Source: Enterobacteria phage ATK47. From it: a stretch of 64,000 nucleotides of DNA. The stretch lies in sequence record NC_055708.1; one strand, 5' to 3'. Of the stretch, positions 45,162 through 55,738 are shown in pieces; position 1 is the stretch's first letter, and each line of letters opens with the position of its first letter. A program made the position numbers and the translations under genes. The notes beneath the pieces were generated by a model that saw only the letters and a list, made by a program, of their open reading frames with translations, had not been told where the DNA came from and did no database searches.

Positions 45162-47873
45162 ATGAAAGAATTTTACTTAACGGTTGAACAGATTGGTGAT
45201 TCAATTTTTGAACGTTACATCGATTCTAATGGCCGTGAACGTACTCGTGAAGTAGAATATAAACCATCACTGTTTGCTCATTGTCCAGAAAGTCAGGCTA
45301 CTAAATATTTCGATATCTACGGTAAACCTTGTACTCGTAAGTTGTTCGCTAATATGCGTGATGCCTCCCAATGGATTAAACGCATGGAAGATATCGGACT
45401 TGAAGCACTTGGCATGGACGATTTCAAATTGGCGTATTTGTCTGACACTTATAACTATGAAATCAAATATGACCATACAAAAATTCGTGTGGCTAACTTC
45501 GACATCGAAGTAACATCCCCGGATGGGTTCCCTGAGCCGTCACAAGCAAAACATCCGATTGATGCTATCACCCATTATGACTCAATTGACGACAGGTTCT
45601 ACGTATTTGATCTATTGAATTCTCCATATGGCAATGTAGAAGAATGGTCTATCGAAATTGCGGCTAAGCTTCAAGAACAAGGTGGTGATGAAGTTCCATC
45701 TGAAATTATCGATAAAATCATTTATATGCCGTTTGATAATGAAAAAGAATTATTGATGGAATATCTCAACTTCTGGCAACAGAAAACTCCTGTCATTTTG
45801 ACTGGATGGAACGTTGAGTCATTTGATATTCCATATGTGTATAATCGAATCAAGAATATTTTTGGTGAATCCACAGCAAAACGGTTGTCGCCACATCGTA
45901 AAACTCGTGTTAAAGTTATCGAAAACATGTATGGTTCTCGTGAAATCATTACATTGTTCGGTATCTCTGTTCTTGATTACATTGACCTTTACAAAAAATT
46001 CTCTTTCACAAACCAACCGTCGTATTCTCTGGATTACATTTCAGAATTTGAATTGAACGTTGGTAAACTGAAATATGACGGCCCTATTTCTAAGCTTCGT
46101 GAAAGCAATCACCAACGATATATTTCTTATAACATTATCGACGTATATCGTGTATTGCAAATTGATGCTAAACGCCAGTTCATTAACTTGAGCTTGGACA
46201 TGGGTTATTATGCTAAGATACAGATTCAATCTGTGTTTAGCCCAATTAAAACATGGGATGCTATTATTTTTAATAGCCTTAAAGAGCAGAACAAGGTGAT
46301 TCCACAAGGTCGTTCTCACCCGGTTCAACCTTATCCTGGCGCTTTTGTTAAGGAACCTATTCCAAATCGATACAAATATGTAATGAGTTTCGACCTTACA
46401 TCTCTGTATCCAAGTATTATTCGCCAAGTGAATATTAGCCCAGAAACAATAGCAGGAACGTTTAAAGTAGCTCCATTGCATGATTATATTAACGCAATCG
46501 CTGAACGTCCTTCAGATGTGTACAGTTGCTCTCCTAACGGCATGATGTATTATAAAGACCGTGACGGTGTAGTTCCAACTGAAATCACTAAGGTCTTTAA
46601 TCAACGTAAAGAACATAAAGGTTATATGCTTGCGGCTCAACGTAATGGTGAAATAATTAAAGAGGCGTTGCATAATCCTAATCTTTCTGTTGACGAACCA
46701 TTAGATGTTGATTATCGTTTCGACTTCACTGACGAGATTAAAGAAAAGATTAAAAAGTTGTCTGCTAAATCTCTTAATGAAATGTTGTTTAGAGCTCAAC
46801 GTACTGAAGTTGCAGGTATGACTGCACAAATTAACCGTAAATTGCTTATCAACTCGCTTTATGGTGCACTTGGTAACGTATGGTTCCGTTATTACGATTT
46901 GCGTAATGCTACTGCAATCACAACATTCGGGCAAATGGCTTTACAGTGGATTGAACGTAAAGTTAATGAATATCTGAATGAAGTTTGTGGTACAGAAGGT
47001 GAAGCTTTCGTTCTTTATGGTGATACAGACTCTATTTACGTATCTGCTGATAAAATTATCGATAAGGTTGGTGAATCTAAATTCCGTGATACCAACCATT
47101 GGGTAGACTTCTTAGATAAGTTTGCACGTGAACGTATGGAACCAGCTATTGATAAAGGTTTCCGTGAAATGTGTGAATACATGAACAATAAACAACACTT
47201 AATGTTCATGGACCGAGAAGCTATCGCTGGTCCTCCGCTCGGTTCTAAAGGTATTGGTGGATTCTGGACCGGTAAGAAACGTTATGCATTAAACGTGTGG
47301 GATATGGAAGGAACTAGATACGCTGAGCCTAAACTCAAAATCATGGGTCTCGAAACACAGAAATCTTCGACCCCTAAAGCAGTACAGAAAGCTCTTAAAG
47401 AATGTATTCGTCGTATGCTTCAAGAAGGTGAAGAATCATTACAAGAATATTTTAAAGAGTTTGAAAAAGAATTCCGTCAATTGAATTATATTAGCATCGC
47501 GTCAGTATCTTCTGCGAATAACATTGCTAAATATGACGTTGGTGGATTCCCTGGTCCTAAATGCCCGTTCCATATTCGTGGAATTCTGACATATAACAGA
47601 GCTATCAAAGGTAATATTGATGCTCCACAAGTTGTAGAAGGTGAAAAAGTATATGTTCTGCCTTTACGTGAAGGAAACCCATTCGGTGATAAATGTATCG
47701 CATGGCCTTCTGGTACTGAAATCACAGATTTAATTAAAGACGACGTACTTCATTGGATGGACTACACTGTTCTCCTTGAGAAGACATTTATTAAACCACT
47801 TGAAGGATTCACATCAGCAGCGAAACTCGATTACGAGAAGAAAGCATCTCTGTTCGATATGTTCGATTTTTGA
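45162..47873 (+). CDS. 43: DNA polymerase gp43 (family B, with 3'-5' exonuclease)
   Basis: 903 aa; exo motif FDIEV; polymerase motifs SLYPSII, YGDTDS. Confidence 0.95.
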   Translation: MKEFYLTVEQIGDSIFERYIDSNGRERTREVEYKPSLFAHCPESQATKYFDIYGKPCTRKLFANMRDASQWIKRMEDIGLEALGMDDFKLAYLSDTYNYEIKYDHTKIRVANFDIEVTSPDGFPEPSQAKHPIDAITHYDSIDDRFYVFDLLNSPYGNVEEWSIEIAAKLQEQGGDEVPSEIIDKIIYMPFDNEKELLMEYLNFWQQKTPVILTGWNVESFDIPYVYNRIKNIFGESTAKRLSPHRKTRVKVIENMYGSREIITLFGISVLDYIDLYKKFSFTNQPSYSLDYISEFELNVGKLKYDGPISKLRESNHQRYISYNIIDVYRVLQIDAKRQFINLSLDMGYYAKIQIQSVFSPIKTWDAIIFNSLKEQNKVIPQGRSHPVQPYPGAFVKEPIPNRYKYVMSFDLTSLYPSIIRQVNISPETIAGTFKVAPLHDYINAIAERPSDVYSCSPNGMMYYKDRDGVVPTEITKVFNQRKEHKGYMLAAQRNGEIIKEALHNPNLSVDEPLDVDYRFDFTDEIKEKIKKLSAKSLNEMLFRAQRTEVAGMTAQINRKLLINSLYGALGNVWFRYYDLRNATAITTFGQMALQWIERKVNEYLNEVCGTEGEAFVLYGDTDSIYVSADKIIDKVGESKFRDTNHWVDFLDKFARERMEPAIDKGFREMCEYMNNKQHLMFMDREAIAGPPLGSKGIGGFWTGKKRYALNVWDMEGTRYAEPKLKIMGLETQKSSTPKAVQKALKECIRRMLQEGEESLQEYFKEFEKEFRQLNYISIASVSSANNIAKYDVGGFPGPKCPFHIRGILTYNRAIKGNIDAPQVVEGEKVYVLPLREGNPFGDKCIAWPSGTEITDLIKDDVLHWMDYTVLLEKTFIKPLEGFTSAAKLDYEKKASLFDMFDF

Positions 47874-47913
47874 TATAATGCCATGGACGGTAAACTAATT
47901 AAATGAGAGAAAT

Positions 47914-48549
47914 ATGAAAACTACACCAATCACTATCGCTATTGACGCAATCGTAAAACAAGCTTCTTCTTTGGCTACTATGGCCAAAGTAATTAGTCAA
48001 AACCCTGCTCGTTATAATGCTATTCTAGAAACTCTTCGACGCCCAGGACTTAGTAATTATGAAAGCCGAGTAATTATTACAGGTGTTGGTAAGAATGCTA
48101 ATATTGCAACTAAAGCTTCTGAGACATTTGCTTCACTCGGTATCCCAAGTATGTACTTGAACACCGGGCATTATTCTCACGGTGATGCAGGATTCATTGC
48201 GCCTAATGATGTGTTGATTCATATTAGTCGTTCTGGTAAGACTGAAGAAATGATAGGTGTTGCTAAACATCTTCGTATGATTCGTCCTCAGGTTAAACAG
48301 ATTCTGTTACATTGTAACCCTGACATTCCACAAGAATACGAAGCTCTTTTTGATTATACGTTCTGTACCGGTATCGCGGTAGAAGTTGACGAGAACTCTT
48401 TAGCTCCGACAATGTCCACTACATTGTTGTTAGCGCTTATCGATACGTTCGCTATCAACCTTTCGTCTGAACGCGGATTTACCTCTAATGACTTCCTTAA
48501 GTTCCACCCTGGTGGTGCACTAGGTGCCATGTTACGAGGCGAGCAATGA
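47914..48549 (+). CDS. SIS-domain sugar-phosphate isomerase (KdsD/GutQ arabinose-5-phosphate isomerase-like, no CBS domains)
   Basis: ITGVGKNANIATK, HGDAGFI, ISRSGKTEE, LAPTMSTT and FHPGGALG match SIS-domain isomerase motifs. Confidence 0.7.
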   Translation: MKTTPITIAIDAIVKQASSLATMAKVISQNPARYNAILETLRRPGLSNYESRVIITGVGKNANIATKASETFASLGIPSMYLNTGHYSHGDAGFIAPNDVLIHISRSGKTEEMIGVAKHLRMIRPQVKQILLHCNPDIPQEYEALFDYTFCTGIAVEVDENSLAPTMSTTLLLALIDTFAINLSSERGFTSNDFLKFHPGGALGAMLRGEQ

Positions 48550-48689
48550 AAGCAATAACAATAGGACTTTTACTATTGATGCTTGTCATGACTATCTACT
48601 GGAGCTTAACGGCTCCAGTAATGATTCCGACTCTTATAATCGGATGGATTATGATTGGACTACAAGCAAAGTATGAATGCTTTAACTAG
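48546..48689 (+). CDS. small hydrophobic protein (47 aa, below ORF-track cutoff)
   Basis: translated by hand; ATGA overlap with upstream stop. Confidence 0.3.
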   Translation: MKAITIGLLLLMLVMTIYWSLTAPVMIPTLIIGWIMIGLQAKYECFN

Positions 48690-48730
48690 AATAGTGTACA
48701 ATACACCTACTTACCAATGAGGACCACAAC

Positions 48731-50416
48731 ATGAAAAAAGCTGTTATTCTTGGTGCTGGACTGGCAACTCGTTTGTATCCAATAACGCATCATATTCCTA
48801 AGGTGCTTGTTAACTATAAACAAGACACTATTCTGAGCAATTTGTATACAATTTATTCTGACCTTGGCGCAGATGAAATTATTGTAGTAGTTCATTCAAA
48901 ATTTGCTGAAACTGTTCGAGCTTATTGCGAGCAAGAAGGGTTCAATGCGACTATTCGTACAGTTGATGAAGCGTATGGTTCTGCTTATGCTCTTGCTAAA
49001 TTATACAAAGATTTAGATGGCCATAATGTAATTGTTAACTGGTGTGATATTATTCCTGATTTTGGTTCATGGTCTTGGAATGTTAACGCAATCTATGTTA
49101 AGGGTGATGAATGTCGATATAATTTCGATGGTGAAAATATCACTAACGTAGGTTCAACAGGCGGTAATGTTGTAGGAATTTATCAGTTCAAAGACTGGGA
49201 ATTCTACATGGGTTCTACTGATGAGGAAATTCACGAATACTGCAAAGGACGTGATTTCGTAGAATTCCTTTACGGCAGTGCATTCAATAAATCAGAGCTT
49301 ATGAATCTAATTGATTTAGGTGATATGCCTAAACTTGAAAAAGCTCATGAAGTTCGTGAACTTAATCGTAGTTTTAATGCAGTTGAAATTGGCGAAGAAA
49401 CTGTAACTAAATTCGCGTTAACCGAACAAGGTCGAGCTCTTCAGAAAGATGAGATTTCATGGTATTTGAAAGTGAAATCAGATTCAGTCCCTCAGTTAGT
49501 TTCTGTTAATGAAAATAACTTTGAAATGGAACGTATTAAAGGTAAGCCGGCATTTGAATATATTAAATCCAAATCAAGTCTTGCTCGTCCACAAATTGTT
49601 GATGCAATTTTAGATGCACTGAAATTCAGCACAGACACTTATTTTGTAAGTCCTGAAACTGTTCGCCGTGATTTCACTAAAGAGTTCTATACGAAAGTTA
49701 TTGATCGTTGTGAAAGCATTCAGCCATTGATTGATTCATTTGGTAAAATCACACACGTGAACTACACTAAGATTGGACGTCTGAAGCCAATGTTGAAACA
49801 AGCTTTAGAACATCTTATTCGTTATCATAACCGTTCTCAGGGACAGTACTCTGTTATTCACGGTGATCCGAACTTCAGTAATACTATGATTACTGATAAC
49901 GGCGAAGTCAAGTTTATCGACCCTCGTGGATATTTTGGTGAAACCAAGATTTACGGACCAAAATTGTATGATGAAGCTAAAGTGCTTTATGCTGTTTCAG
50001 GTTATGATGAATTCAACGCTAATCCGACCTGGGGCCAGTTTATTATTGATGAAACAACTTGTAATGTGACTATTAACATCAATCCATTAGTTTACAAATA
50101 TGGAAAGATGAGTTCGTTTAACGAGTATCATCATTTGGCAGTAGCAATTATCTGGATTGCATTAGGTGGTTATTTCAAGAATAATCCACTTAAAGCGGTA
50201 GCCGCATATTATAAAGGTATGGAACTTCTGACTAAGCAATTACGTAACATGGGCCGTGTACTTCAAGATGGCTCTATTAGTTATGACGTAGCAGAACCTG
50301 TAACGGCTACTCTGATTACAAAAAATCCTGGTAAATGGGTACTAACTGATAAAGAAACTGGTGTTTCCTATCGTCCAATCGGTGGCGATATCACTCATCA
50401 ATGGGAACGAATCTAA
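48731..50416 (+). CDS. bifunctional sugar-1-phosphate nucleotidyltransferase (N-terminal) / anomeric sugar kinase (C-terminal)
   Basis: N-terminal AVILGAGLATRL as in LicC/RmlA-type nucleotidyltransferases; C-terminal HGDPNFSNTMI...FIDPRG as in choline/aminoglycoside/AmgK kinases. Confidence 0.7.
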   Translation: MKKAVILGAGLATRLYPITHHIPKVLVNYKQDTILSNLYTIYSDLGADEIIVVVHSKFAETVRAYCEQEGFNATIRTVDEAYGSAYALAKLYKDLDGHNVIVNWCDIIPDFGSWSWNVNAIYVKGDECRYNFDGENITNVGSTGGNVVGIYQFKDWEFYMGSTDEEIHEYCKGRDFVEFLYGSAFNKSELMNLIDLGDMPKLEKAHEVRELNRSFNAVEIGEETVTKFALTEQGRALQKDEISWYLKVKSDSVPQLVSVNENNFEMERIKGKPAFEYIKSKSSLARPQIVDAILDALKFSTDTYFVSPETVRRDFTKEFYTKVIDRCESIQPLIDSFGKITHVNYTKIGRLKPMLKQALEHLIRYHNRSQGQYSVIHGDPNFSNTMITDNGEVKFIDPRGYFGETKIYGPKLYDEAKVLYAVSGYDEFNANPTWGQFIIDETTCNVTININPLVYKYGKMSSFNEYHHLAVAIIWIALGGYFKNNPLKAVAAYYKGMELLTKQLRNMGRVLQDGSISYDVAEPVTATLITKNPGKWVLTDKETGVSYRPIGGDITHQWERI

Positions 50417-50802
50417 TGCACCGTGTAGAAAACATGCTTAATCTTTGTTTTGATGTCGATGATTGTATAACAGAGTGGAATAACAATCGTGATTATGTGA
50501 ACTTCAAACCAGACGTCGAAATGGTGACCGCCATTAATGCCCTGTATGATGCAGGGCATACCATAACGCTTTACACTGCTCGTGGTATGAAGTCGGTAGG
50601 TCCTGGTCGTATAGCAATTGACATTCTCCCAAGTCTGATTCAGAACTTGGAAAACATTGGTTTGAAGTACCATAATTTGCTAACACATAAACCAGTATAT
50701 GATTGGATTATCGACGACAAAGCTATGCGTCCTGACGAATTCAAAGCTCTTATGAATAAAGGCGAATTCGAAACATTTAAATCGTATAAACCGAATCTAT
50801 AA
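50416..50802 (+). CDS. HAD-superfamily phosphatase
   Basis: motif I FDVDDCIT; small cap-less HAD architecture; TAATG overlap with upstream gene. Confidence 0.55.
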   Translation: MHRVENMLNLCFDVDDCITEWNNNRDYVNFKPDVEMVTAINALYDAGHTITLYTARGMKSVGPGRIAIDILPSLIQNLENIGLKYHNLLTHKPVYDWIIDDKAMRPDEFKALMNKGEFETFKSYKPNL

Positions 50803-50853
50803 TAATTTAAGTAAGACCTGCAAAAAAAAACCCATCGCATCAATTAACGCGAG

Positions 50854-52023
50854 ATGCAAAAAATGAATACTTTTAAAATCGGAACGAATTTTGATTTAGC
50901 TCTTCTTGATAAAATCGTAGAGCTCAATAAAACTTATCCTAATAGCTTGATAAATGAAGTATACGGCTCTACAAGAGAAATGGCTTTTGTAGCAGCCAGA
51001 CCTGATTTTAGGCTTCCTGACGTTGACAAAAAGATGTTAGAAGACTACGTTAAACGTTGTAACGAATTAGGTATTTGCTTTAACTATACACTCAACACGA
51101 TAAATCCTGGTTCAAAAAGAGAACTAGTTGAGTGGAAGAAGAAAGCTATTCAGGATTATGTTCAGTATCTTTGGTCAATAGGCGTATGGCGTATTACTAT
51201 CGCTAACCCTGTTGTTATGGAAATTGTTCGTGAAGTCAATAAAGACATTGAGATTGAAGTTTCAACAATTCTACATGTTGATGCTGTAACTCAAATCAAA
51301 TACTTGCACGACCAATATAACATCAAAAAAGTCTGTTGCGGAATTCATAAGAACCGTTCAGTTTCTTTCCTGAAGCGTGCAGCAGAGTTTTGCAATAAGA
51401 ACAATATAATATTTGAAGTTCTTGTAAATGAGTTCTGTTCTAATGCTGGTAAAGGGTATACAACACATTGTAGCTATCGTGACTCTTGCTATATTTTCCA
51501 TAGTACTGATGTTACCGCTGATGATGCTAAATCCTTAAATGGATATCCTATGCAGCACTGTATTAAAGCTCGTGATACAGACCCATTTAACTGGCTGAGA
51601 ACTCGTTTTGTTCGTCCTCAAGATTTGAAACTTTATAATGATATTGGTATCACTCAATTCAAAGTTTCAGGACGTACAGGTAGCACAGACTACATTTTGA
51701 AAGTTCTTGAAGCATACGCTTCTGAAAAGTTTGAAGGTAATTTGTTAGAACTGTGGAAGCCTTTAGAGACTATTTTCACTCTTGAAAATGAGACTGAGTT
51801 TTCACATACAGTAAATATTGAAACCTCATTGTTAGACGGTTTTTTAGAAAAAAGGTGGTTCAGACATCCAGATTTCGATTGTGCTAATGAAATCTGCGGG
51901 ACGACGTGTACATATTGTGAAAGATATTATAAACGTCAGTTATCTAAAAATGGGTTATCAGAAAACTCTATATCTATTATTGATATAACTAACTCTGATG
52001 ACGCTTTGAGGTACCCGGAATGA
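50854..52023 (+). CDS. hypothetical protein, Cys-rich C-terminus (candidate sugar-modifying or transferase enzyme)
   Basis: 389 aa ORF inside the island; CANEICGTTCTYC cluster; function not recognisable. Confidence 0.45.
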   Translation: MQKMNTFKIGTNFDLALLDKIVELNKTYPNSLINEVYGSTREMAFVAARPDFRLPDVDKKMLEDYVKRCNELGICFNYTLNTINPGSKRELVEWKKKAIQDYVQYLWSIGVWRITIANPVVMEIVREVNKDIEIEVSTILHVDAVTQIKYLHDQYNIKKVCCGIHKNRSVSFLKRAAEFCNKNNIIFEVLVNEFCSNAGKGYTTHCSYRDSCYIFHSTDVTADDAKSLNGYPMQHCIKARDTDPFNWLRTRFVRPQDLKLYNDIGITQFKVSGRTGSTDYILKVLEAYASEKFEGNLLELWKPLETIFTLENETEFSHTVNIETSLLDGFLEKRWFRHPDFDCANEICGTTCTYCERYYKRQLSKNGLSENSISIIDITNSDDALRYPE

Positions 52024-52259
52024 TTTCTAGAAAAACTTTTAACCACCAACTTAATGAAGAGATTTTGACTATAAAACTGAACACTAACGAACAAATTCTT
52101 AAAAAGGCCCTTATGGGCCTGTTTGAAACCAAAGCGGCTAAAGTGATTAAAGAACCTGTTCAATTGGAATACTACACTGATGCATTCCTTCATAGTGTTC
52201 TTGGAAGTATAGATTCTGAAGCTTTACGTTATATCAACATTGCCAAGAAATTCAAATAA
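52020..52259 (+). CDS. hypothetical protein
   Basis: 79 aa ORF, ATGA overlap. Confidence 0.4.
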   Translation: MISRKTFNHQLNEEILTIKLNTNEQILKKALMGLFETKAAKVIKEPVQLEYYTDAFLHSVLGSIDSEALRYINIAKKFK

Positions 52260-52301
52260 GCTTTACGAATTGAGTATATAATAAATTGTATTGAGGTAAA
52301 C

Positions 52302-53018
52302 ATGGGAAAACATAACACAATGAAATATATCAAAGCCGCAGATTTTCAAGCCGCATTTAAAGCAGTCAATCGTGAAATTTTAGAAAATCCTGAATTCGTA
52401 ACTGATTCTCGTATTGGACGTTGTAATGAAATCGGGTCCATGACAGTAGTTGTTGACAATCCATCATCATTCAAAATGACCGACCCACGTATTAACCGCA
52501 TCTCTTATGAATATGCCGAAGACTTCTGGAAGTTTATGATTTCTGGTGGTACTGATGCAGAAGAAGCGTTTAAGGCATATCCTAATGTCGCTAAATTTAT
52601 TTCTAAACCTAAATCAGACGCTTTGCCGGCGAACTTCAACACTTTCTATGGTCCTCGCATTGCGGCCCAATTACCAGCTCTTCTAAAAGAACTTAAAGAG
52701 AAACCTAACTCTCGAAGAGTTGTGTTCCAAATTCTAGAAAGTTCTGATCAGGCTTTGCTTGATTCGGACGAAACACTTGAATATCCATGTACTGACTCAG
52801 TGACTTATTATATTCGCGATGGTAAGCTTTATACCCACTGTCATATGCGTTCTCAGAACTGTGCTGTTGTTATGCAGTTGGATTTTTATCTCCAAGGAAA
52901 ATTACTTCATTATATCGCTAACGAATGCGGCGTAGAAGTTGGTGATTATACTCATACCATGGTAAGTGCCCATGTGTTTGAACGTGATTTTGATTATGTT
53001 AAAGGATTCCTTGACTAA
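52302..53018 (+). CDS. thymidylate-synthase-family deoxypyrimidylate hydroxymethylase (gp42-like, divergent)
   Basis: KPNSRRVVF, nucleophile motif YPCTDSVTYYIRD, MRSQN...QLDFY align to remembered T4 dCMP hydroxymethylase NPDSRR / MCTNTVQYLIRD / MRSND...RNDY. Confidence 0.7.
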   Translation: MGKHNTMKYIKAADFQAAFKAVNREILENPEFVTDSRIGRCNEIGSMTVVVDNPSSFKMTDPRINRISYEYAEDFWKFMISGGTDAEEAFKAYPNVAKFISKPKSDALPANFNTFYGPRIAAQLPALLKELKEKPNSRRVVFQILESSDQALLDSDETLEYPCTDSVTYYIRDGKLYTHCHMRSQNCAVVMQLDFYLQGKLLHYIANECGVEVGDYTHTMVSAHVFERDFDYVKGFLD

Positions 53019-53917
53019 TGGCTATTTTCCGCGTACCAATCTTGAGTATGCGGTCTTATGAAACTGGACAGTATGCTATCCTTAAGGATGGCAACTTCCA
53101 ACTTCATTTGCACCGTGCTAATCCAGGTGATGTGATTACATATCCACGTAATGCATCTGATATTAAAGAATGTGAACGTCTTTTCCCGGAATTTAAGTTT
53201 GTTCCATTATGGTATAAAGATAACGCGTATAACACTCGTAAATATTTCTGGTCTGAAAATGAATTTGTGGTTGATTCATTAATTGCTTATTATGATTGTG
53301 ATTTTCTAATAACAGATATCACTGGATATGACGGCGCTTTTGATGTAGAATTCAATTTCAATATCACTGCAGACCCTAATAAACCACGTTTTTATATTGA
53401 TGAATTCTTAAAAACCGATATGTTGTCGGTTAATCGTTCACTTCAAACTACTGTGTTGAATGAACGTCAAAAAGAAGTGCTGGTTAACGCCGGTGCAGAT
53501 GGTAATAAGATTATCGTAACGCAGAAAGTTATACGTCCTTCCATCATGCAGCGTCTTGTAGGTGATTTGGCTCCTATTCATGTAGATGGTATTTTTCATC
53601 CATTTCGAATTAGTGATCCGTGTTATCATTTTGAACAAGTGGTTGAATGTGCAATTCAATTAGGTCAACCGCTTTATATAACTGATCCAAATAATAGCTT
53701 TGACAGAAATAAGTATCCTGAAGAAGCGCTGATTCGAATTTTTAAACCAACTAAAACTGAGTACTATCAAATTCTTAAAGGACGTCCGAAGATTCAATAT
53801 TTCGAAAATCCTGAAGAAGTATTCCATCCAGGTCTTGGTGAGTTCATCTACTTTAATGCTTTAATTTCTTCGCCGTATAATATACCTAAATACGAAGATG
53901 TCGTAATCGAGGAATAA
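53018..53917 (+). CDS. hypothetical protein at T4 beta-gt position (candidate DNA glycosyltransferase)
   Basis: 299 aa ORF, position only; no motif recognised. Confidence 0.4.
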   Translation: MAIFRVPILSMRSYETGQYAILKDGNFQLHLHRANPGDVITYPRNASDIKECERLFPEFKFVPLWYKDNAYNTRKYFWSENEFVVDSLIAYYDCDFLITDITGYDGAFDVEFNFNITADPNKPRFYIDEFLKTDMLSVNRSLQTTVLNERQKEVLVNAGADGNKIIVTQKVIRPSIMQRLVGDLAPIHVDGIFHPFRISDPCYHFEQVVECAIQLGQPLYITDPNNSFDRNKYPEEALIRIFKPTKTEYYQILKGRPKIQYFENPEEVFHPGLGEFIYFNALISSPYNIPKYEDVVIEE

Positions 53918-53918
53918 A

Positions 53919-54467
53919 ATGGCTAAAATTATTTTAGTAGATGGCCCAGATAATGCTGGTAAAACAACTTTCATTAATGACATAATGGAAATTAGTGAAA
54001 GATATGTAAAGATTGATTTCCCTAAACGAACAGTTGATGGACGTTTCGATGTTAAGTCTCGAAATGAAGTTGGCTGTTTCGAAACGATGTTGAATTATTT
54101 AGACCCTACTAAGATTTATCTGTTAGACCGTGGATATATTAGTAACTGGGTTTATGGACGTATTCGACAAGATGCGGACTCGGTTCTTGACGTTTATGAA
54201 CAGGACTATGTTCGTCTTTGCCAAAACCATGATGTGTTCACAATTATTTTAACACGTAACGAAATGACTGAAAGTTTTGAAGACGACCTTATTACTTTGT
54301 CTTCATTCGGTTTTAATACAGTCATTTCACATTTTGAAGAGTTTGCAATTCATAACAAAATCCAAACGTATCAATTACTTAATCATGATGGTGCTAACAA
54401 AGTTATAGGATTTAATGCAAGCGAACGTAATTATTTGATTACAGAAATTATCAAATGGGCTCGTTAA
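53919..54467 (+). CDS. thymidylate-kinase-like P-loop nucleotide kinase
   Basis: P-loop VDGPDNAGKTT and LDRGYISNWVYG (DRY-type motif) resemble dTMP kinase family. Confidence 0.55.
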   Translation: MAKIILVDGPDNAGKTTFINDIMEISERYVKIDFPKRTVDGRFDVKSRNEVGCFETMLNYLDPTKIYLLDRGYISNWVYGRIRQDADSVLDVYEQDYVRLCQNHDVFTIILTRNEMTESFEDDLITLSSFGFNTVISHFEEFAIHNKIQTYQLLNHDGANKVIGFNASERNYLITEIIKWAR

Positions 54468-54565: not shown

Positions 54566-55738
54566 ATGTCTGATTTAAAATCTCGTCTGATTAAAGCTTC
54601 TACTTCTAAAATGACTGCCGACTTGACCAAGTCTAAGCTCTTTAATAATCGTGATGAAGTCCCTACTCGTATTCCGATGTTGAATATTGCACTAGGTGGT
54701 GCTCTGAATGCAGGATTGCAATCAGGCTTGACTATTTTTGCTGCACCTTCTAAACACTTTAAAACATTGTTTGGGCTGACTATGGTTGCAGCGTATATGA
54801 AGAAATATAAAGATGCAATCTGTTTGTTTTATGACTCGGAATTTGGTGCTTCAGAATCTTATTTTCGTTCAATGGGTGTTGATTTAGACCGTGTAGTTCA
54901 CACACCAATTCAGTCCGTCGAACAACTTAAAGTTGATATGACTAATCAGCTTGACGCTATTGAACGCGGTGATAAAGTTATTATCTTTATCGATTCAATC
55001 GGTAATACTGCATCTAAGAAAGAAACCGAAGATGCATTGAACGAGAAAGTTGTAGGTGATATGTCTCGTGCTAAGGCACTTAAATCTCTGTTCCGTATTG
55101 TGACTCCTTATCTGACTATTAAAGATATTCCGTGTGTTGCAATCAACCATACAGCAATGGAAATCGGCGGACTATATCCTAAAGAGATTATGGGCGGTGG
55201 TACAGGTATTCTTTACTCTGCTAACACTGTATTCTTTATCTCTAAACGTCAGGTTAAAGAAGGTACAGAATTGACAGGTTATGACTTCACGTTGAAAGCA
55301 GAAAAATCTCGTACTGTTAAAGAAAAATCTACTTTCCCGATCACGGTTAATTTTGATGGCGGTATTGATCCATTCAGTGGCTTGTTAGAAATGGCAACTG
55401 AAATTGGATTTGTTGTTAAGCCTAAAGCTGGTTGGTATGCTCGTGAATTCCTTGACGAAGAAACAGGCGAAATGATTCGTGAAGAAAAATCATGGCGTGC
55501 TAAAGCTACTGATTGTGTAGAATTCTGGGGGCCGTTGTTTAAACACAAACCTTTCCGAGATGCAATTGAAACTAAATATAAACTAGGTGCTATCTCTTCT
55601 ATTAAAGAAGTTGATGACGCTGTTAACGACCTTATTAATTGCAAAGCAACAACTAAAGTTCCGGTTAAAGCTTCTGATGCTCCGTCTGCAGCAGATATAG
55701 AAAACGACCTTGACGAAATGGAAGATTTCGATGAATAA
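54566..55738 (+). CDS. uvsX: recombinase UvsX (RecA-like)
   Basis: 390 aa; MSDLKSRLIKAS...; Walker A FAAPSKHFKT; near-identical to remembered T4 UvsX. Confidence 0.95.
   Translation: MSDLKSRLIKASTSKMTADLTKSKLFNNRDEVPTRIPMLNIALGGALNAGLQSGLTIFAAPSKHFKTLFGLTMVAAYMKKYKDAICLFYDSEFGASESYFRSMGVDLDRVVHTPIQSVEQLKVDMTNQLDAIERGDKVIIFIDSIGNTASKKETEDALNEKVVGDMSRAKALKSLFRIVTPYLTIKDIPCVAINHTAMEIGGLYPKEIMGGGTGILYSANTVFFISKRQVKEGTELTGYDFTLKAEKSRTVKEKSTFPITVNFDGGIDPFSGLLEMATEIGFVVKPKAGWYAREFLDEETGEMIREEKSWRAKATDCVEFWGPLFKHKPFRDAIETKYKLGAISSIKEVDDAVNDLINCKATTKVPVKASDAPSAADIENDLDEMEDFDE

Follow-up and report, generated by a model that had tools for sequence, protein, structure and literature searches.

An AfhE ortholog in an RB69-like phage: a fused nucleotidyltransferase and kinase very likely supplying UDP-arabinofuranose for DNA modification

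The window of 64,000 nucleotides analysed here, which is matched with 100% identity by the ATK48 GenBank record (an RB69-like Mosigvirus), contains a gene on the + strand at positions 48731-50416 encoding a 561-aa protein that is an ortholog of AfhE. Very likely, its C-terminal part is a D-arabinose-5-phosphate 1-kinase and its N-terminal part a UDP-D-arabinofuranose pyrophosphorylase, which together provide UDP-arabinofuranose (UDP-Araf) for the arabinosylation of 5-hydroxycytosine in DNA. Descriptions and biochemical characterisation of this enzyme family have been published before, so that the gene is correctly predicted but not new.

The open reading frame runs from an ATG to a stop codon over 561 aa, the opposite strand is rich in stop codons, and the profile phrog_4098 matches the protein end to end (E 1.3e-293). 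Homologs are present in 372 phage records, with identities ranging from 100% down to about 26%, and the DNA of AlbertHofmann (Bas47) is 97.5% identical across the region. The gene is genuine, and a chance ORF is excluded. In the ATK48 record it is left unannotated, and other phage records title its homologs “bifunctional protein GlmU”, “mannose-1-phosphate guanyltransferase” or similar. A scan for promoters and terminators between positions 47800 and 52400 gave 14 signals versus 17.4 expected from shuffled sequences, and hence no enrichment in this region.

The original prediction had described a single protein joining an N-terminal G-x-G-x-x-R nucleotidyltransferase to a C-terminal kinase with an HGD...N...D signature, and this architecture is borne out by the ORF, by the full-length profile match and by both folds. 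The protein is divided as follows:

48731..49342, + strand: N-terminal nucleotidyltransferase domain, about residues 1-204, with G8-A-G10-L-A-T-R14 ... P23-K24 and D106
49343..50260, + strand: C-terminal APH/choline-kinase-like kinase domain, about residues 205-510, with K227, E241, H377-G-D379, N384 and D397
50261..50413, + strand: C-terminal tail of about 50 residues (511-561), a small beta-rich extension in the AF2 model

All motifs quoted in the prediction were located, namely AVILGAGLATRL at residues 4-15, HGDPNFSN at 377-384 and FIDPRG at 395-400. The N-terminal half exceeds the gathering cut-off of Pfam NTP_transferase (37 versus 21.2 bits, residues 3-99), and the AlphaFold model of the whole protein, with a pLDDT of 92, has the nucleotidyltransferase fold there; a different fold in this half, which had been named as a possible objection, was not found. 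The kinase half stays below the Pfam gathering cut-offs in the 561-aa protein itself (APH 14.1 versus 23.2, Fructosamin_kin 16.9 versus 22.4), and its homologs give APH matches exceeding the cut-off. Among 34 aligned homologs K227, E241, D379, N384 and D397 are invariant, which answers the second objection, that the kinase residues might be absent on alignment, and the catalytic residues of both domains show no variation among homologs as low as about 30% identity. Structure comparison backs a GT-A-like nucleotidyltransferase and an APH-like kinase, the nearest kinase folds being APH, choline kinase and fructosamine kinase. The kinase identity of the C-terminal half is thus confirmed by the invariant residues, the APH matches of the homologs and the structure comparison, and the domain search and structure prediction that had been proposed as a check uphold both domains, the kinase half being sub-threshold by Pfam. 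The tail has a pLDDT of 75-86 with short strands; it is kept in phage homologs, being part of the alignment consensus, and is missing from shorter ones such as P0083 with 519 aa.

At the syntenic position of phage HY126 lies XAN60479.1, which is identical in 542 of 562 positions (96%) over the full length and differs by a single-residue indel and about 20 substitutions; of all these differences, roughly half fall into residues 242-265 of the kinase N-lobe. XAN60479 can be assumed to be AfhE from the account of Lee 2026 (PMC13326640). HY126 AfhE and RB69 ORF53_52c (gp52:53) have the same two-domain architecture as the 561-aa protein, and the HY126 and RB69 loci share with this one the neighbouring isomerase, phosphatase, U32-like gene, ThyA homolog, glycosyltransferase and kinase. 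The gene neighbourhood is:

47914..48549, + strand: SIS-domain arabinose-5-phosphate isomerase, RB69 gp55 ortholog (Pfam SIS E 4.1e-10; role according to Lee 2026)
48546..48689, + strand: 47-aa ORF, annotated likewise in AlbertHofmann (bas47_0152) and HY126 (XAN60480)
48731..50416, + strand: AfhE ortholog, 561 aa (96% to HY126; phrog_4098; AF2 pLDDT 92)
50401..50802, + strand: HAD-type phosphatase, AfhF/RB69 gp51 ortholog (NCBIfam EcbF-BcbF capsule biosynthesis phosphatase E 2e-13; motifs FDVDDCIT and IIDDK)
50854..52023, + strand: U32-“peptidase”-like protein, RB69 gp50 ortholog (Pfam Peptidase_U32, 42.2 versus 22.4 bits)
52020..52259, + strand: 79-aa ORF in the slot held by chorismate mutase in related phages
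52302..53018, + strand: thymidylate-synthase homolog, RB69 gp48 ortholog (Pfam Thymidylat_synt E 2.4e-15; 98% identical to its HY126 counterpart)
53018..53917, + strand: putative 299-aa glycosyltransferase, RB69 gp46:47 ortholog (Lee 2026 Table 1)
53919..54467, + strand: 182-aa thymidylate-kinase-like nucleotide kinase, RB69 gp45 ortholog (weak NCBIfam dTMP kinase match; Lee 2026 Table 1)

With the isomerase on one side and the HAD phosphatase on the other, the AfhE ortholog sits in an arabinosyl-5-hydroxycytosine DNA-modification cluster, in synteny with the arabinose-5-phosphate isomerase, the HAD phosphatase, the ThyA-like 5hodCMP synthase and the DNA glycosyltransferase. Gene, folds, catalytic residues, orthology and synteny are established here. 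SIS is the sole domain of the isomerase, which matches NCBIfam KpsF/GutQ (E 5.1e-32) and KdsD (E 2e-30), both under the equivalog cut-offs. An alternative start of the HAD gene at 50416 shares the sequence TAATG with the stop codon of afhE. The 47-aa ORF is noted with a transmembrane segment in the LC53 record, and the 182-aa kinase is titled “Putative thymidylate kinase” in AlbertHofmann. The 299-aa glycosyltransferase has no match in Pfam or NCBIfam and is unannotated in the ATK48 record; in every Straboviridae locus compared, its gene adjoins that of the ThyA homolog, and RB69 gp46:47 has been proposed as the first DNA arabinosyltransferase (Lee 2026 Table 1, PMC13326640).

Substrates, step order and the use of UTP are taken at second hand from the literature. 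Arabinosylated 5-hydroxycytosine is present in the DNA of RB69, Bas46, Bas47 and HY126, the RB69 gp48-type ThyA homolog is reported as a flavin- and O2-dependent dCMP 5-hydroxylase (5hodCMP synthase), and AfhE is described as “analogous to RB69 gp52:53” (Lee 2026, PMC13326640); a UDP-arabinose role for RB69 ORF53_52c had been put forward in 2018 (Thomas 2018, PMC6024577). As relayed in the text of Lee 2026, HY126 AfhE acts in vitro both as D-arabinose-5-phosphate 1-kinase and as UDP-D-arabinose pyrophosphorylase (He 2026), and the HAD phosphatase is reported there to strip the 5-phosphate from arabinose 1,5-bisphosphate (PMC13326640). The pathway would then start with the upstream SIS isomerase, which would turn ribulose 5-phosphate of the host into D-arabinose 5-phosphate, a sugar phosphate confined to the furanose form. 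Using ATP, the APH-like kinase domain in the C-terminal half would phosphorylate C1 to give arabinofuranose 1,5-bisphosphate, the HAD phosphatase from the overlapping downstream gene would take off the 5-phosphate, and the N-terminal nucleotidyltransferase would convert arabinofuranose 1-phosphate and UTP to UDP-Araf and pyrophosphate. Finally, phage glycosyltransferases would move the arabinose onto the 5-hydroxycytosine supplied by the ThyA homolog. The furanose ring form would in this scheme be fixed by phosphorylation at C1 before the 5-phosphate is removed.

The original prediction had assumed that NDP-sugars are made from free sugars, following AmgK/MurU- or LicA/LicC-like logic. This is probably mistaken, since the substrate has been reported to be a sugar 5-phosphate, which resembles the logic of the heptose pathways. 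In a free-sugar order the HAD phosphatase would release D-arabinose, the kinase would then phosphorylate C1 and the nucleotidyltransferase would form UDP-arabinose; we regard this as improbable. Since both orders need the same four enzymes, gene content and fusions cannot discriminate between them, and APH, choline kinase and fructosamine kinase, the relatives of the kinase domain, act mostly on unphosphorylated substrates. The published account itself gives both versions: Table 1 of Lee 2026 states that gp51 “dephosphorylates Araf5p to Ara” and that the CTD “Phosphorylates Ara to Araf1p”, whereas its text, citing in vitro work with HY126 AfhE and AfhF, places the Ara5P kinase first and the 1,5-bisphosphate phosphatase second (PMC13326640). 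The closest solved relative of the nucleotidyltransferase domain by profile, HddC (E 1.3e-14), belongs to a pathway of the bisphosphate order. Furthermore, the donor that works, and that related transferases accept, is UDP-Araf and not UDP-Arap, and free D-arabinose is predominantly pyranose, which also counts against the free-sugar order.

Comparison with known systems likewise places the proposed phage route, with phosphorylation before dephosphorylation, next to the nucleotide-heptose pathways rather than to free-sugar salvage. The four-step logic is alike, with GmhA as SIS isomerase, HldE or HddA as C1 kinase on heptose 7-phosphate, GmhB as HAD 7-phosphatase and HldE-C or HddC as nucleotidyltransferase, and HldE is likewise a fusion of kinase and nucleotidyltransferase. 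HldE, however, combines a PfkB-type kinase with a cytidylyltransferase-like transferase and HddA is a GHMP kinase, whereas the phage kinase is APH/choline-kinase-like and the 561-aa protein has no Pfam match to a PfkB or CTP_transf_like domain, and thus lacks the HldE-type pair of PfkB kinase and cytidylyltransferase-like adenylyltransferase. It also differs from the heptose pathways in the domain order, from nucleotidyltransferase to kinase, in the C5 furanose sugar and in the UDP carrier. The AmgK/MurU and NahK-type anomeric kinases are, unlike the phage enzyme, separate proteins that act on a free amino sugar without a phosphatase step; the NCBIfam model NAMPUrTaseMurU reaches 24.2 bits, its cut-off being 250, so that the fold alone is in common. 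LicA/LicC differ in the substrate choline, which is no sugar, in the CTP carrier, in being separate proteins and in an unrelated gene context. FKP (L-fucokinase/GDP-fucose pyrophosphorylase) and the trypanosomatid arabino/fucokinase-pyrophosphorylases join an anomeric kinase and a pyrophosphorylase in one chain as the phage enzyme does; they differ in having a GHMP-type kinase and in making GDP-sugars in pyranose form from free sugars, and to our knowledge they need no phosphatase step.

The same architecture might also serve another product, that is a different pentose (xylose, or a deoxypentose as proposed for phage Thanatos) or CDP, GDP or dTDP as carrier. The prediction had held that sugar and nucleotide specificities cannot be read from sequence; this stands for the nucleotidyltransferase signature alone, which is silent on both, and the top structural matches of this domain mix CTP-, dTTP-, UTP- and GTP-using enzymes, but gene context and literature do allow the specificities to be inferred. 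The Thanatos modification was read as a deoxypentose, and purified TH1_060 of Thanatos was inactive on xylose-1-phosphate, a non-cognate sugar, together with any of five NTPs (Thanatos paper). On the other hand, the adjoining isomerase is of the arabinose-5-phosphate type, arabinose is attached to 5-hydroxycytosine in RB69, whose cluster is near-identical, and the UDP-Araf preference of the related transferases points the same way. With 96% identity to the HY126 enzyme an altered specificity is unlikely, and we consider another product very improbable.

The GenBank labels GlmU and mannose-1-phosphate guanylyltransferase, carried by several phage records, and the reading as a GT-A glycosyltransferase acting on DNA, for which a CDD GT-A match was noted by Thomas 2018 (PMC6024577) and by the Thanatos authors, can practically be discarded: GlmU is refuted by domain content, since the NCBIfam match (TIGR01173, 20.6 versus a cut-off of 366.85) is confined to residues 3-104, the left-handed beta-helix acetyltransferase domain is missing and the C-terminal half is a kinase, and the other two are rejected on scores and domain content, the guanylyltransferase model reaching 19.8 against a cut-off of 440, the cluster encoding separate GT-B-like transferases (Lee 2026, PMC13326640) and TH1_060 having moved no sugar onto DNA in vitro (Thanatos paper).

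With UDP-Araf made by the AfhE pathway, RB69-like phages cover every cytosine with arabinose chains, a coat that blocks restriction enzymes and shapes the sensitivity to other defence systems. As this arabinosylation biology has already been published, finding the gene again adds little beyond a correction of the databases, in which it is missing from the ATK48 record and elsewhere misnamed GlmU or mannose-1-P guanylyltransferase. The enzyme family reaches jumbo phages and, as four-domain fusions such as P0084, giant-virus-like contigs.

More novel than the AfhE ortholog is the lead offered by the nearby U32-like gene, for which the published label found is only “sugar or heterocycle reductase”. 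U32 enzymes form 5-hydroxycytidine and 5-hydroxyuridine in RNA, drawing the oxygen from prephenate (PMC5727448, PMC6599085, PMC10990095). All 220 phage records with the U32 gene encode a protein of at least 80% identity, and ten of its Cys are invariant. Foldseek with its model gave the U32 structure 5d88, the one solved U32 structure, as top match, followed by generic TIM barrels. Pairwise BLAST against E. coli UbiU, UbiV, RlhA and TrhP is insignificant, and of the four Cys ligands of the 4Fe-4S cluster only one column aligns cleanly: C212 aligns with UbiU C176, UbiV C180, RlhA C176 and TrhP C177. C195 is one column off UbiU C169, and the remaining ligands do not align. Directly after the U32 gene, 54 related phages encode a chorismate mutase whose catalytic residues are intact, even where the other gene order is rearranged, and this pairing suggests an oxygen-independent, prephenate-dependent cytosine 5-hydroxylase. 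Tentatively, the U32-like protein may therefore be a candidate for such an enzyme, acting on nucleotide or DNA and backing up or replacing the ThyA-like 5-hydroxy-dCMP synthase when enteric hosts are infected under anaerobic conditions. If true, prephenate-dependent hydroxylation would be extended to a DNA base for the first time, and this would explain how gut phages could synthesise 5-hydroxycytosine without oxygen. In support of this reading, the U32 gene has no match among 57 phage records of the strict aerobe Acinetobacter that have the rest of the pathway. A strict link between U32 and host anaerobiosis was rejected, as the coliphage AnYang, the one Dhakavirus locus examined, lacks U32 in the cluster region, and the AfhE homolog occurs in about 40 more Escherichia phage records than the U32 gene, which also speaks against it. 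The 79-aa ORF at 52020-52259 was rejected as a diverged chorismate mutase (BLASTP insignificant, no Pfam match, hhalign probability against the phage chorismate mutase profile 0.1%). Also in support of the hydroxylase reading, U32 homologs with 50-58% identity adjoin genes for dCMP deaminase and thymidylate kinase in large uncultured phage contigs.

The ORF at 48731-50416 (+) runs from its ATG to the stop codon without interruption and encodes 561 aa, and the antisense strand of this interval carries stop codons throughout. The protein aligns with phrog_4098 over its entire length (E 1.3e-293) and has homologs in 372 phage records, with identities from 100% down to ~26% (tblastn). It is a genuine conserved gene, and the variable region that contains it is flanked by DNA polymerase gp43 (45162-47873) and uvsX (54566-55738). 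In megablast, 47900-52300 finds Enterobacteria phage ATK48 (KT184310.1) at 100%, which is a Mosigvirus and RB69-like T-even phage, and 152 further records match at 95-99%. The ATK48 record has no annotation of the ORF, showing two “repeat_region” features instead, and a 299-aa ORF (53018-53917), a putative arabinosyltransferase, is also unannotated there. In other records the gene is labeled “hypothetical”, “GlmU”, “mannose-1-phosphate guanyltransferase” or “nucleotidyl transferase”, and in BASEL phage AlbertHofmann “putative enzyme involved in UDP-arabinose biosynthesis”. Identity as GlmU can be rejected, since the score is 20.6 bits where the cut-off is 366.85 and an acetyltransferase domain is lacking.

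The original prediction, an N-terminal nucleotidyltransferase (NT) joined to a C-terminal kinase in one protein, agrees with both the domain matches and the catalytic residues. The quoted NT motif, AVILGAGLATRL, lies at residues 4-15, and the HGD...N...D kinase signature is found as HGDPNFSN (377-384) and FIDPRG (395-400). The domain search recovered the NT, since Pfam NTP_transferase matches residues 3-99 with 37 bits against a gathering score of 21.2, but not the kinase, as APH, fructosamine kinase, EcKL, RIO1 and ABC1 all match residues 344-409 of this sequence under the Pfam cut-offs. NCBIfam gives sub-threshold matches, all N-terminal, to archaeal GlmU-type, AglF, MurU, HddC and RmlA. In an alignment of 34 homologs with identities down to ~30%, G10, R14, K24 and D106 of the NT and K227, E241, D379, N384 and D397 of the kinase never change, and conservation of H377 is 90% or more. 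The top solved match to the profile of the AfhE family, named after the phage HY126 enzyme, is the heptose-1-phosphate guanylyltransferase HddC (E 1.3e-14); a structure of the family itself was not found in this search for solved relatives. The structural matches 4y7t, 1jyk and 3ham are the same as those reported for RB69 gp52:53 (Lee et al., 2026). As the kinase residues are in place and the N-terminus has an NT fold, the two-domain reading is therefore favored.

AfhE itself, reported as both a D-arabinose-5-phosphate 1-kinase and a UDP-D-arabinose pyrophosphorylase (He et al., 2026, via Lee et al., 2026), is probably the syntenic protein of HY126, which is 96% identical to the 561-aa protein over the full length; the remaining cluster genes are 92-100% identical. 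All features of the AfhE / RB69 ORF53_52c family that are testable here are present, and judged by its sequence the protein is a member of this family. The ATK48-type sequence is common to 85 phage records at at least 99%. Of the ~20 changes that separate the protein from its HY126 ortholog, about half, with the sole indel among them, lie in residues 241-265 (49451-49525) of the kinase N-lobe, and this cluster resembles a variable hairpin or a local mosaic patch. The family and its role are already known and published. Arabinose was found in RB69 DNA, and RB69 ORF053c and ORF052c were recognized as one gene of 561 residues that a sequencing error had divided; it was expressed and proposed as a candidate for UDP-arabinose synthesis (Thomas et al., 2018, PMC6024577); in agreement, the RB69 record carries an extra C relative to the window in this gene. 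The modified base is arabinosylated 5-hydroxycytosine, whereby 5-hydroxy-dCMP is made by a ThyA homolog with flavin and O2, the RB69 protein gp52:53 was modeled as N-terminal nucleotidyltransferase plus C-terminal kinase, and the donor of the DLP3 transferases is UDP-Araf, not UDP-Arap (Lee et al., 2026, PMC13326640). The homolog of Shewanella phage Thanatos is 54% identical; according to the Thanatos paper it is genetically essential for propagation and had no activity on xylose-1-phosphate with any of five NTPs.

The gene is surrounded by the following features:

47914-48549, SIS-only arabinose-5-phosphate isomerase of the KpsF/GutQ type, upstream of the NT/kinase gene (E 5.1e-32)
48546-48689, 47-aa ORF between isomerase and NT/kinase gene, annotated in relatives
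50401 or 50416 to 50802, small EcbF/BcbF-type HAD phosphatase, directly downstream (E 2e-13; FDVDDCIT, IIDDK)
50854-52023, U32-like protein, downstream of the HAD phosphatase
52020-52259, 79-aa ORF, overlapping the U32 stop codon
further downstream, ThyA homolog, 299-aa protein and thymidylate-kinase-like protein

One of the two candidate starts of the HAD gene overlaps the NT/kinase stop (TAATG); several RefSeq records name its product “phosphoheptose isomerase”. For the 47-aa ORF, a transmembrane segment is noted in the LC53 record, and for RB69 ORF054c in this slot, similarity to the T4 42-imm intercistronic region has been described. Gene content was compared by a tblastn matrix across six divergent Straboviridae loci (Serratia LC53, Klebsiella P545, Shewanella Thanatos-2, Proteus PM2, Dhakavirus AnYang, and Acinetobacter Acj61). 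NT/kinase gene, HAD phosphatase, ThyA homolog, 299-aa protein and kinase occur together in all six, the isomerase and the U32 gene in only part of them.

In the best-supported account, the upstream isomerase would convert ribulose 5-phosphate to D-arabinose 5-phosphate, the C-terminal kinase domain would phosphorylate C1, the downstream phosphatase would remove the 5-phosphate, the N-terminal domain would join arabinofuranose 1-phosphate with UTP, and the phage transferases would place the sugar on 5-hydroxycytosine. Gene, folds, catalytic residues, orthology and synteny are direct results for the NT/kinase protein; substrates, order of steps and nucleotide come from the literature at one remove, from which, together with the context, the sugar and nucleotide specificities can be inferred, contrary to their supposed unreadability. 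The chief alternative is the free-sugar order assumed in the original prediction, with the phosphatase acting first, which is still given in Table 1 of Lee et al. (2026, PMC13326640) and which the gene content fits equally well. It is set apart only by the cited enzymology, as far as relayed, in which the kinase acts before the phosphatase: AfhF, the HAD phosphatase, is described as Mg-dependent, converting arabinofuranose 1,5-bisphosphate to the 1-phosphate (He et al., in the part relayed by Lee et al., 2026, PMC13326640). We infer that phosphorylating C1 before the 5-phosphate is lost holds the sugar as a furanose, which would fit UDP-Araf as the active donor. The kinase-first order has the same logic as the nucleotide-heptose pathways (GmhA, then HldE or HddA, then GmhB, then HldE-C or HddC), whereas the kinase fold is APH-like here and PfkB or GHMP there. 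With AmgK/MurU and LicA/LicC, the systems first proposed as models, the folds are common but the pathway logic is not.

The U32/chorismate mutase pairing is the part of the locus that deserves a further look. The U32-like gene has a Pfam U32 domain above cut-off, with the U32 structure 5d88 as best solved match of its model, and its product shows 80% identity or more in every one of the 220 phage records with it, far more conserved than AfhE. The host genera listed for it are Enterobacterales and Shewanella; Acinetobacter is not among them, in contrast to 57 Acinetobacter phage records with AfhE, and the tblastn matrix found no U32 gene in the Acj61 cluster. A type II chorismate mutase directly follows the U32 gene in 54 of the 220 records. 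The pair is kept in Thanatos-2, though placed elsewhere relative to the ThyA homolog, and the phage mutases retain R11, R28, K39, E52, S84, and Q88 of the E. coli PheA mutase domain. Related U32 loci among the comparison sequences are:

L004:5992-7502
L005:3829-5231
L006:3874-5264
L007:2731-5228

The window's 79-aa ORF occupies the same slot without detectable similarity to the mutase and was rejected as such; its HY126 counterpart is annotated as 40 aa only and is 92% identical over those 40. Further U32 homologs with 50-58% identity lie on large uncultured phage-like contigs (L008:8001-9086, 466 kb; L009; L010:8001-9083) within modules for replication and nucleotide metabolism, in the order thymidylate kinase, UDG, DnaE-type polymerase, dCMP deaminase, U32, with no ThyA homolog or AfhE near them at these three loci. 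Ten cysteines are invariant in the phage subfamily, of which C212 aligns with a conserved 4Fe-4S ligand of UbiU, UbiV, RlhA, and TrhP, the remaining ligands being unplaceable in the alignment. U32 enzymes form ho5C2501 (RlhA) and ho5U34 (TrhP) in RNA, and UbiU/V act under anoxia with prephenate as oxygen donor (PMC5727448, PMC6599085, PMC10990095). Because U32 enzymes hydroxylate C5 of RNA pyrimidines with prephenate, the phage gene is a candidate and may encode an O2-independent cytosine 5-hydroxylase; U32 gene, chorismate mutase and context together suggest an O2-independent route to 5-hydroxycytosine, with the caveat that the tblastn matrix found no U32 gene in the Dhakavirus locus AnYang. 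RB69 gp50 is labeled only “sugar or heterocycle reductase”, with U32 and prephenate unmentioned (Lee et al., 2026, PMC13326640), and the authors of the Thanatos paper state no hypothesis on the origin of the hydroxyl. A U32-prephenate link to the cluster was absent from the literature searched.

Beyond phages of this type, a kinase-domain search of 1.84 billion cluster representatives gave 1,274 clusters at E <= 1e-3, falling to 449 at <= 1e-10 and 59 at <= 1e-30. Among the best 150, most share the NT-kinase layout, 16 are multi-domain fusions (887-1011 aa), and kinases of ~300 aa that stand alone also occur. Distant homologs of ~890-1010 aa combine HAD, SIS, NT and kinase in a single chain and retain every catalytic residue of both AfhE domains, which is Rosetta-stone evidence that the four activities belong to one pathway. 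On a 350-kb jumbo-phage-like contig, a 519-aa homolog lies in the order SIS ... GT2, AfhE-like, HAD, ThyA homolog. Three homologs of ~890-950 aa are:

L014:9001-11781, P0084
L017:8001-10679, P0115
L018:5545-8283, P0108

All three contain the HAD phosphatase plus NT-kinase unit, only P0084 and P0108 the SIS isomerase. The fusion genes have neighbors of eukaryotic-virus (giant-virus) type: at one contig two Rpb2 genes, RNA_pol_N, TFIIB and MutS-HNH; at another a Ski2-like helicase, dUTPase, epimerases and GT2; at the last SNF2, a Ulp1-type peptidase and asparagine synthase; no ThyA homolog is near them at the three contigs looked up. Domain content and neighbors suggest a one-protein route from ribulose-5-P to NDP-pentose in eukaryotic viruses, the product of which is probably used for glycans, not DNA; giant viruses are not mentioned in Lee et al. 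(2026, PMC13326640). In Vibrio phage F86, a 441-aa homolog (L013:8974-10299; 27% identical) is found by itself, with QueC-like, radical-SAM and nicotinamide phosphoribosyltransferase genes around it. There is no HAD, ThyA-homolog or GT partner near it at this locus, and it may therefore serve a different sugar or pathway.
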